Positions 2-5,989 of a DNA stretch of 5,989 nucleotides are shown one piece after another. This DNA comes from a virus (taxonomy: Duplodnaviria; Heunggongvirae; Uroviricota; Caudoviricetes), in IMG/VR virus record IMGVR_UViG_2534682173_000012; one strand, given 5' to 3'. The notes below the pieces were generated by a model. It did not search any database and was not told the origin of the DNA. It was given only the letters and a program-made list of their open reading frames with translations. A program made the translations under genes and the position numbers. Each line of letters begins with the position of its first letter. Position 1 is the first letter of the stretch.

Positions 2-1416
<1,415 letters not shown>

Positions 1417-1665: not shown

Positions 1666-1855
1666 GAGTGGCAGGGGAAGCGTCACTCTGGAGTTTAAGA
1701 TTTTCCAGAAAGGCAATCAGGGGGCAGGCAATATCACCGACTGTACGGTGATTGTGACCAGAGTGGCAGGGGAAGCGTCACTCTGGAGTTTAAGATTTTC
1801 CAGAAAGGCAATCAGGGGGCAGGCAATATCACCGACTGTACGGTGATTGTGACCA
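1666..1855 (+). repeat. Perfect direct tandem duplication, 2 x 95 bp (1666-1760 and 1761-1855), inside the 3' end of J
   Basis: Both units read gagtggcaggggaagcgtcactctggagtttaagattttccagaaaggcaatcagggggcaggcaatatcaccgactgtacggtgattgtgacca; compared base by base, no mismatch. Flanking bases (c before, a after) do not allow the boundaries to slide. Confidence 0.95.
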
Positions 1856-1907
1856 AAAAAGCCGCTTCCGGCATCAGTATTCGTTGAAATTGTTATAACC
1901 CATATAA

Positions 1908-1935
1908 GGGCGTCAGAAATGACGCCTTTTTTATT
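1908..1935 (+). terminator. Rho-independent terminator downstream of J
   Basis: Stem ggcgtca (1909-1915), loop gaaa, stem tgacgcc (1920-1926), followed by TTTTTT (1927-1932). Confidence 0.7.
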
Positions 1936-2556: not shown

Positions 2557-2582
2557 TTAGCCAGGTAACACAGTGTTATGAC

Positions 2583-2610
2583 AGCCCGCCGGTTCAGGCG
2601 GGCTTTTTTG
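2583..2610 (+). terminator. Rho-independent terminator downstream of lom
   Basis: Stem agcccgc (2583-2589), 8-nt loop, stem gcgggct (2598-2604), followed by TTTTTT (2604-2609). Confidence 0.75.
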
Positions 2611-2620
2611 TGGGGTGAAT

Positions 2621-5600
2621 ATGGCAGTAAAGATTTCAGGTGTACTGAAAGACGGCACAGGAAAACCGGTACAGAACTGCACAATCCAGCTGAAAGCAAA
2701 ACGTAACAGCACCACGGTGGTGGTGAACACGCTGGCCTCAGAAAATCCGGATGAAGCCGGGCGTTACAGCATGGACGTTGAGTACGGTCAGTACAGCGTT
2801 ATTCTGTTGGTGGAAGGATTCCCGCCGTCACATGCCGGGACCATCACCGTGTATGAAGATTCTCAACCCGGTACGCTGAATGATTTTCTCGGTGCCATGA
2901 CGGAGGATGATGCCCGTCCGGAGGCACTGCGCCGTTTTGAACTGATGGTGGAAGAGGTGGCGCGTAACGCGTCCGTAGTGGCACAGAACACGGCAGCCGC
3001 GAAGAAGTCAGCCGGCGATGCCGGCACATCTGCCCGTGAGGCGGCAACCCATGCGACTGATGCTGCAGGCTCAGCACGCGCAGCCAGCACGTCAGCCGGA
3101 CAGGCCGCTTCGTCGGCTCAGTCAGCGTCTTCCAGCGCAGGAACGGCATCAACAAAGGCCACTGAAGCCTCAAAAAGTGCTGCCGCTGCAGAGTCCTCAA
3201 AAAGCGCGGCAGCTACCAGTGCCGGTGCGGCGAAAACGTCAGAAACGAATGCTGCAGCGTCACAACAATCAGCAGCCACTTCTGCATCCACCGCGACCAC
3301 GAAAGCGTCAGAAGCTGCCACCTCAGCCCGGGATGCGTCGGCTTCAAAAGAGGCAGCGAAATCATCAGAAACGAACGCATCCTCGAGCGCCAGTAGCGCA
3401 GCTTCCTCGGCAACGGCGGCAGGCAATTCCGCGAAGGCGGCAAAAACGTCCGAGACGAACGCCAGGTCTTCTGAGACGGCAGCGGGACAGAGCGCCTCAG
3501 CTGCGGCAGGCTCAAAAACAGCGGCTGCGTCGTCTGCCAGTGCCGCGTCAACAAGTGCCGGGCAGGCCTCAGCCAGTGCCACCGCCGCCGGAAAATCGGC
3601 AGAAAGTGCTGCATCGTCCGCTTCAACAGCCACAACGAAGGCTGGCGAAGCCGCTGTACAGGCCAGCGCAGCAGCGAGGTCTGCTTCCGCAGCGAAGACA
3701 TCCGAAACGAATGCGAAAGCGTCGGAAACCCGTGCAGAATCCTCAAAAACGGCAGCCGCATCGTCCGCCAGTTCGGCAGCGTCATCGGCATCATCTGCGT
3801 CTGCTTCAAAAGATGAGGCGACCAGACAGGCGTCAGCAGCGAAGGGCAGCGCCACGACGGCATCCACGAAAGCAACAGAGGCGGCAGGCAGTGCGACGGC
3901 GGCATCTCAGAGCAAAACTACTGCTGAATCCGCTGCGACCCGTGCGGAAGCTGCTGCTGATCGTGCTGAAGAGATTGCCGGTGCAGTTGCGATGGAAGAC
4001 GCAAGCCTTACAACTAAAGGTGTTGTGAAACTTAGCAGTGCTGTTGATAGCACCAGTGAATCGCTGGCGGCAACGCCAAAGGCAGTAAAATCAGCCTATG
4101 ACAATGCAGAGAAACGTCTGCAGAAAGACCAGAACGGCGCTGATATACCCGATAAGGGACGCTTCCTGAACAACATTAACGCGGTCAGTAAAACAGACTT
4201 TGCTGATAAGCGTGGTATGCGTTATGTGCGGGTTAACGCTCCTGCAGGTGCAACATCTGGAAAATATTACCCTGTTGTTGTTATGCGTTCTGCTGGCTCA
4301 GTAAGCGAACTGGCATCAAGGGTCATTATCACCACGGCAACGCGACCCGCAGGCGATCCGATGAATAACTGCGAGTTTAACGGATTTGTTATGCCTGGTG
4401 GCTGGACTGACAGGGGGCGTTATGCTTATGGAATGTTCTGGCAATATCAAAACAATGAACGAGCCATCCACTCAATAATGATGAGTAATAAGGGCGATGA
4501 TTTGCGCTCTGTGTTCTATGTTGATGGCGCTGCTTTCCCTGTTTTTGCGTTTATCGAAGATGGCCTGTCAATATCCGCACCTGGTGCTGATCTCGTTGTT
4601 AATGATACGACCTATAAGTTTGGGGCAACAAATCCGGCGACTGAATGTATCGCGGCGGACGTTATCCTTGATTTTAAGAGTGGGCGTGGTTTTTATGAGT
4701 CTCATTCGTTAATCGTTAACGATAACTTGTCGTGCAAAAAACTTTTTGCCACAGACGAAATTGTAGCGCGTGGTGGTAATCAGATTCGAATGATAGGTGG
4801 GGAGTATGGGGCATTATGGCGTAATGATGGCGCTAAAACTTACCTGCTGCTTACCAATCAAGGTGATGTTTATGGTGGCTGGAATACATTAAGACCGTTT
4901 GCTATTGATAACGCAACCGGCGAACTGGTTATTGGAACCAAACTGTCCGCAAGTCTGAACGGTAATGCATTAACAGCAACAAAGCTGCAAACGCCAAGAC
5001 GGGTTTCTGGTGTTGAGTTTGATGGTTCCAAAGATATTACTTTAACCGCCGCGCATGTGGCTGCTTTTGCCAGAAGGGCAACGGATACATATGCCGATGC
5101 GGATGGTGGCGTTCCCTGGAATGCCGAATCAGGCGCTTACAATGTCACCCGCTCTGGCGACAGCTATATTCTGGTTAACTTCTATACCGGAGTCGGAAGT
5201 TGCCGGACCCTGCAGATGAAGGCGCATTACAGAAATGGTGGTCTGTTCTACCGTTCTTCAAGAGATGGCTATGGTTTTGAGGAAGACTGGGCAGAAGTTT
5301 ATACCTCGAAAAATCTTCCACCAGAAAGCTACCCAGTCGGCGCACCAATCCCGTGGCCATCAGATACCGTTCCGTCTGGTTATGCCCTGATGCAGGGGCA
5401 GACTTTTGACAAATCTGCCTACCCGAAACTTGCTGCCGCTTATCCGTCAGGCGTGATCCCTGATTTGCGTGGCTGGACGATTAAGGGCAAGCCCGCCAGT
5501 GGTCGTGCCGTATTGTCTCAGGAACAGGACGGCATAAAATCGCATACCCACAGCGCCAGCGCATCCAGTACGGATTTGGGGACGAAAACCACATCGTCGT

Positions 5601-5989
5601 TTGATTACGGCACTAAATCCACGAATAACACTGGTGCGCATACCCATAGTTTAAGTGGCAGCACGAATGCAGCTGGTAATCACAGCCATAGAGATGGCCG
5701 TCGATTTAACCCCAGTGTTTTTAAAGATACTTATCAATATGGTTATACAAGCTCAGGTCAAAATACCTGGGGTGTACAAGGCTCAGTAGGTATGTCTACG
5801 GGGTGGTTAGCGAATACCAGTACAGATGGTAATCATAGCCATTCACTGTCCGGCACAGCAGCATCTGCAGGTGCACACGCGCATACTGTCGGTATTGGTG
5901 CTCATACGCACTCCGTTGCGATTGGTTCACATGGACACACCATCACCGTTAACGCTGCTGGTAACGCGGAAAACACCGTCAAAAACATC
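2621..5989 (+). CDS. stf: Side tail fibre protein Stf, 3'-partial (no stop before window end; at least 1123 codons)
   Basis: Hand translation of frame 2 from ATG 2621 has no stop through 5989, and the ORF track (which lists only ATG-to-stop ORFs) shows no frame-2 ORF here, consistent with that. N-terminus [62 protein letters not shown] matches the lambdoid Stf N-terminus as I recall it. Later come [20 protein letters not shown], a tail-collar-like segment ([50 protein letters not shown]) and repeated H-x-H motifs. Weak SD (gggg) 5 nt upstream of the ATG. Confidence 0.9.
2990..3990 (+). repeat. GC-rich low-complexity region of stf encoding an Ala/Ser/Thr-rich shaft with degenerate internal repeats
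   Basis: About 330 codons that are almost entirely A/S/T/K/E/G. The motif AAK(T/S)SETNA recurs four times (nt about 3228-3263, 3353-3385, 3431-3470, 3690-3730). Codon periodicity (GCN/TCN/ACN) creates long spurious ORFs in other frames and on the opposite strand. Confidence 0.6.

Follow-up and report, generated by a model that had tools for sequence, protein, structure and literature searches.

The window analysed is the entire 5,989-bp contig AQAV01000028.1 of the draft assembly GCA_000358495.2, whose proteins ENF33185.1 and ENF33186.1 bear the name of Escherichia coli P0304816.12. It carries the J - lom - stf order of the lambdoid tail module, as do the related loci L001, L002 and L003, and the three genes, with all the parts of them described below unless marked otherwise, lie on the plus strand. 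Positions 1-2000 are 94-97% identical to gpJ and lom of lambda h434, phage 434 and many prophages, and the closest complete E. coli genome, ECO8855, shows 97.9% identity across the whole window with the same order of genes. The J gene is cut by the contig start. The lom gene (1957-2556), encoding an Ail/Lom outer-membrane beta-barrel, is intact, matches Pfam Ail_Lom over its full length (2.6e-120) and showed no indels when aligned with its relatives. The side tail fibre gene stf (2621-5989) is open for 1,123 codons, matches Pfam phage_tail_N, Gp34_trimer and Collar, and is cut by the contig end; no stop codon was found in it and no indels relative to L003 in the alignment. A terminator-like hairpin (1906-1929, plus strand), after which comes a T run, stands 3′ of J, and a second terminator-like hairpin is located at 2583-2604.

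The native reading of J runs in frame 2 up to position 1072, in frame 1 from 1073 to 1400, in frame 2 from 1401 to 1760 and again in frame 1 from 1856 to 1887. Positions 2-1072 show 97-98% identity to the gpJ of phage 434, lambda h434 and numerous E. coli prophages and hold the Pfam domains Ig_J and Ig_J_second, and the segment 1073-1400, assigned by three-frame translation, holds the Phage_Tail_Tip domain. Positions 1401-1665 encode a 434-type receptor-binding domain (Pfam Ig_GpJ_C) with 99.4-99.7% identity to intact gpJ. They lead directly into a duplicated 95-bp unit, 3′ of which the native J tail KKAASGISIR with TGA 1885-1887 is found at 1856-1887. Two further indels were revealed by mafft alignment with L001, L002 and L003, namely a 1-bp deletion after 1072, where a G is lost (CATTAT[G]TCGCGG, 1072..1073), and a 65-bp deletion at 1400|1401 (CATGCTGG...CCCGAAAA missing), which sits 265 bp upstream of the duplication. 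J thus has no uninterrupted reading frame, being broken by indels of -1, -65 and +95 bp. With the indels reverted an open frame of 618 codons was obtained, 609 of which (98.5%) are identical to intact J. In a Pfam scan of this repaired translation Ig_J, Ig_J_second, Phage_Tail_Tip and Ig_GpJ_C each scored above the cut-off (E-values 2.5e-41 to 2.1e-25). Ig_GpJ_C is described in Pfam as a C-terminal receptor-binding domain, and the last 166 residues of the repaired J align to the solved lambda J structures 8iyk (residues 971-1131) and 8xcj, and also to 9wca. The domain and the structures bear out an earlier interpretation made from the DNA letters alone (the sequence-only reading), in which the duplication was placed at the 3′ end of a lambda-like J, in its receptor-binding region.

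The perfect tandem duplication that the sequence-only reading described was confirmed. The units 1666-1760 and 1761-1855 are identical by direct string comparison, and a separate repeat search agrees, Tandem Repeats Finder giving 1666-1855 as the sole array in the window (period 95, 2.0 copies, 100% matches, 0% indels). Chance cannot account for a perfect repeat of 95 nt. Copy 1 (1666-1760) corresponds to J residues ~1096-1128 of 1137 (PSGRGSVTLEFKIFQKGNQGAGNITDCTVIVTK); the unit codes for the final 33 or so residues of the receptor-binding domain. Since 95 is not a multiple of 3, the tail is frameshifted as claimed, and frame 2 continues from ...GNITDCTVIVT into the 28 non-native residues RVAGEASLWSLRFSRKAIRGQAISPTVR before it stops within copy 2 (1761-1855) at TGA 1844-1846. 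Checking of the codons also showed that the lambda-like ending, with its stop at 1885-1887, is readable in frame 1 only, as had been stated.

The base before the unit is C, the unit runs G...A and the base after the array is A. Because the flanking bases C/A differ from the unit ends A/G, the register of the repeat is fixed and the junction microhomology is zero, which the sequence confirmed as 0 bases at 1665|1666, 1760|1761 and 1855|1856. Zero microhomology was likewise found at the 65-bp deletion junction 1400|1401 in the alignment with three intact relatives, and the repeat search gave no short direct or inverted repeats flanking the junctions that could mediate the indels. RecA-independent replication slippage produces perfect head-to-tail duplications of ~100 bp that can collapse again, normally between short direct repeats. 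The duplication in the window is alike in form but differs at its junction, where neither the microhomology nor the short direct repeat of a slippage-type duplication is present.

Translation of J does not reach the duplication. After the 1-bp deletion it ends at TGA 1118-1120 (codon checked; ORF 41-1120), ~550 nt 5′ of the duplication; the source record has a gene call at 1-1120 of 372 residues, and an ORF at 1093-1419 within J is annotated as ENF33185.1. The duplication cannot be the inactivating lesion of J because this stop precedes it. The sequence-only reading, which took the duplication for the lesion disrupting J, had overlooked the -1 and -65 indels, and its suggestion that the lesion would abolish or alter adsorption becomes moot, as the frame-2 reading into copy 2 is unreached by a ribosome translating J. 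Collapse to one copy would not restore J because the 1-bp deletion still forces the stop at 1118-1120. J is therefore non-functional on AQAV01000028.1, whatever the status of the duplication. The -1 and -65 indels, which sum to -66 and so to an in-frame change, were considered as a compensating pair and rejected, the 328-nt stretch between them being out of frame and containing TGA 1118-1120.

The 1-bp deletion was found elsewhere. An identical 80-mer including it occurs in six complete E. coli genomes (AR436, AR_0374, 3985, MB165, ET300 and W150), and the deletion is also present in an unrelated draft locus (L028, MOHX01000009.1). In AR436 the gpJ concerned (NZ_CP029111.1, 4254915-4258312) is annotated as a pseudogene, "frameshifted". 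A sequencing error was rejected for this deletion, which lies outside homopolymers and is carried by the six finished genomes and one other draft. It is a genuine, inherited pseudogene allele that has spread among prophages. The frameshifted gpJ of AR436 shares with the window both the deletion and its identical 80-nt context, and over window positions 635-1268 the two differ by 1 mismatch. Unlike the window, AR436 and MOHX01000009.1 have a lambda/A8-like receptor-binding domain, and neither has the 65-bp deletion or the duplication; both large junctions are likewise absent from AR_0374, 3985, MB165, ET300 and W150. The intact relatives share the 434-type domain with the window and have none of its three indels (-1, -65, +95). 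Among them, gpJ of phage 434 and lambda h434 (OM418627.1, CDS 15505-18918) resembles the window in the gene itself, in the J-lom-stf order and in the 434-type C-terminal domain, and the intact prophage gpJ of ECO8855 (WP_053273735.1) and MS15047 (WP_078080995.1) does so too; the nucleotide identity of these relatives to the window is 97-99%. J was also seen as a pseudogene or split gene in several finished genomes, at L016 3445-6857 (isolate AJ1, 'frameshifted'), at L019 6842-10320 (CP017438.1), where it is split into 1086 and 71 residues, and at L149 4413-7810 (AR436). Loss of J in resident prophages is common.

The two larger indels are, in all collections searched, confined to this contig. 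Comparison with J genes of related prophages, which the sequence-only reading had pointed to, gave the unit normally as a single copy. Across 50,697 phage records and 5,426 complete E. coli genomes every match was split, into pieces overlapping by 95 bp in the subject, and exactly one copy of the 95-bp unit was found in all relatives. Neither the 40-mer over the duplication junction (1741-1780) nor the 40-mer across 1400|1401 had any match (0 in each case) in the 5,426 complete E. coli genomes; the flanking halves of both match thousands of genomes, in two pieces. A 32-mer of the duplication junction had no match in species-representative genomes, IMG/VR or the metagenome collection, and IMG/VR also lacked the 65-bp deletion junction. 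The wild-type left boundary, used as a positive control, was found in at least 120 IMG/VR contigs, once in each. At the protein level, clustering of ~15 billion proteins left the 61-aa product created by the duplication as a singleton, present on AQAV01000028.1 only, and by exact look-up the ORF spanning the 65-bp deletion junction was also found on that contig only. Exact look-ups of the ORFs 1343-1846, 1093-1419, 1661-1846 and 3118-3855(-) gave nothing or AQAV01000028.1 only, a protein search with the frameshift-tail peptide gave short fragments only, and no near-identical copy of the window was found among the compared IMG/VR loci with the same allele. Lom and the 57-aa ORF are too widespread to pinpoint sister isolates. 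In 150 related loci (1.5 Mb) the array of the window is the only perfect tandem repeat of period >=30, the remaining tandem repeats being all diverged, in frame and inside stf.

The positions of the breakpoints were compared with those at which J alleles diverge. Exactly at the left edge of the 65-bp deletion, lambda/A8-type J alleles begin to differ from 434-type ones, and the unit begins (1666) at the foremost SNP of a cluster, GAGTGGCAGGGGAAGC versus TAGTGGTGGTGGTAGC, by which two 434-type sub-alleles can be told apart. On the right-hand side, breakpoints 1401 and 1855 show no clean coincidence with allele boundaries. Window positions 1264-1400 are identical to the intact 434-type allele of ECO8855 (L003), those from 1401 to 1665 differ from it only in a private G at 1609, and from 1666 onward the sequence follows the sub-allele of MS15047 (L002). 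Because L003 matches both flanks, the 65-bp deletion is internal to one allele, and a simple two-allele chimeric join at 1400|1401 was rejected on the same matches (1264-1400 and 1401-1665, bar the G at 1609). The J part as a whole combines three or more known alleles in a mosaic (~635-1268 AR436-like, 1264-1665 ECO8855/434-like and from 1666 MS15047-like), and could reflect either natural recombination or switching of the assembly path between paralogs. AR436 itself has J at two loci, frameshifted at one and intact and of 434-type at the other, and over window positions 1056-1247 the two genes differ by the G and one substitution. Relative to a panel of 16 loci, 3 private bases were found in the 5,989 bp (949, 1609 and 4346; ~2 in the J part), each either a private substitution or a consensus error. 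Generally low sequence quality was rejected on this low number. All three indels fall within 784 bp, with 0 in the remaining 5.2 kb, a clustering expected by chance with a probability of ~0.047.

The strain name fits the naming scheme of an ETEC project in which multiple colonies were sequenced per patient (PMC4462620). That project used Illumina HiSeq2000 sequencing with 300-bp inserts and the Celera Assembler, with contigs >=500 bp and coverage >200x (PMC4462620). To judge from the naming scheme and the project paper, the P0304816.12 assembly would be a 2013 Illumina and Celera Assembler draft of this project. The sequence of the contig is multi-copy, a complete E. coli genome having matches to it at a median of 3 places and at 16 at most, and the same J segment appears as tiny contigs of 215-564 bp in many other draft assemblies. 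Multi-copy lambdoid tail genes are where short-read assemblies are least reliable. In Celera/CABOG, unitigs are split at repeat-induced path intersections, and among the errors described are chimeras joined within repeats and small faults, mostly of <100 bases, that show up as partially overlapping reference alignments (PMC2639302). The window, in which 95 bp overlap and 65 bp are omitted at allele boundaries or close to them, is like this class of error (Miller et al. 2008, PMC2639302). It differs from the cases of that paper, which cover the collapse of true tandem repeats and pyrosequencing data, in that no tandem repeat exists at the native locus and the sequencing was by Illumina, with software that is presumably the same.

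The 95-bp duplication, and probably the 65-bp deletion, are best read as local assembly errors rather than mutations, with a probability of roughly 0.6. An artefact had rightly been named as a possibility in the sequence-only reading; with the window being a short draft contig from a repeat region, it has now become the leading explanation. The contig would have been built from pieces ending where paralogous J alleles diverge, and two of the joins would have been made by plain abutment, leaving 65 bp unfilled at 1400|1401 and a 95-bp overlap unmerged at 1760|1761, the latter appearing as a perfect head-to-tail duplication. The underlying gene would then be a 434-type J with the genuine inherited 1-bp frameshift after 1072. 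Such pieces would be abutted at a particular step of the assembler. Multi-copy sequence on a short, repeat-bounded contig, as is found here, is the setting in which this would happen. An assembly artefact is favoured because both junctions lack microhomology and short flanking repeats, as would be expected from abutment but is seldom seen with slippage or illegitimate recombination. It is favoured also by the non-random breakpoints, since a mutation need not respect positions that matter in other alleles but an assembler handling paralogs does; here allele-divergence points coincide with the positions where the deletion and the unit begin, and weakly or not at all with 1401 and 1855. The uniqueness of both large junctions and of the perfect repeat, the otherwise clean sequence with its nearly intact J once the three indels are reverted, the odd ratio, for natural decay, of two large indels to ~2 private substitutions in J, the clustering of the three indels within 784 bp and the match of documented CABOG error classes to a 95-bp overlap and a 65-bp omission relative to every reference point the same way, and we infer an assembler origin for the two larger indels. 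Against it stand the project coverage of >200x with a good base-level consensus, and the right-hand breakpoints 1401 and 1855, which lie off clean allele boundaries. Most assemblers also need reads that support a junction, which counts against an artefact, and the 1-bp lesion is real, so that J is a true pseudogene able to gather neutral lesions.

In a less likely second reading both large indels are genuine and arose very recently by mutation in a J already dead by the 1-bp frameshift, as a matter of neutral prophage decay. The 1-bp deletion is real, and the AR436 gene that bears it has the annotation of a frameshifted pseudogene; finished genomes often hold J pseudogenes (L016, L019), high coverage and a clean consensus oppose random error, and the perfect identity of the two copies suits a very recent event. 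A genuine duplication would have had no phenotypic effect, given the stop at 1118-1120, and the 95-bp repeats could collapse by recombination or slippage with J still not restored. This second reading must, however, accommodate two large indels without microhomology beside only ~2 private substitutions in J, an unusual ratio, left breakpoints at allele-divergence points that random mutation would not 'know', junctions of which neither was found in any other genome or protein set searched, and a site on a short repeat-derived contig. Rather unlikely is a contig that follows a chimeric path through several J paralogs of one genome, with ~635-1268, including the 1-bp deletion, and ~1264-1855, with the 434-type domain, taken from different prophages. 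This overlaps with the artefact reading and extends it to the placement of the 1-bp lesion, and in that case the strain may in fact have a fully intact 434-type J. The single mismatch to the frameshifted J of AR436 (L149) over 635-1268, the absence of mismatches to L003 over 1264-1400, with only the private G at 1609 over 1401-1665, and the L002 sub-allele followed from 1666 all agree with such a path, as does the presence of both kinds of J at two loci in AR436, nearly identical over 1056-1247 apart from the G. Lambdoid J is naturally mosaic, however, and a true recombinant gives the same pattern, and the allele switch at ~1264-1268 coincides with no indel.

That both indels are real and arose in one colony during infection, through a single complex event in which the template switched between J paralogs that had diverged in co-resident prophages, is improbable; template switching between paralogs would explain breakpoints that lie at allele-divergence points and yet lack microhomology. 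Least probable by far, and in effect refuted, is that the duplication serves as a functional switch by which the receptor-binding tip of J changes reversibly (phase variation). Only the general tendency of perfect tandem duplications to collapse at an appreciable rate speaks for such a switch, but J is interrupted at 1118-1120 in either state of the duplication, and there is no repeat tract or microhomology to make the event recurrent. One repeat state of a phase-variable locus should give an intact gene, and here the single copy still stops at 1118-1120; copy number should also vary across relatives, and all of them are single-copy, no other genome showing the duplicated state or a variable copy number at the site.

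Be it artefact or mutation, the duplication is ordinary. It is uninformative on adsorption or host range because J is already truncated by an inherited frameshift, and if real it would be one more case of neutral decay in a defective prophage. As a caution, where a short contig of an older draft shows indels or perfect tandem duplications in lambdoid tail genes, these should not be equated with pseudogenisation unless reads support them.

The source record also has two antisense gene calls inside or beside stf, at 3118-3855 (-) with 245 residues and at 2557-2730 (-) with 57 residues. Neither gave a Pfam match, and both are almost certainly spurious annotations. In the stf genes of relatives, in-frame tandem repeats with periods of 42, 45, 99, 132 and 189 nt were observed, none of them perfect and all diverged with 70-91% matches, examples being L023 4414-4718, L030 3372-3810 and L001 8037-8127.
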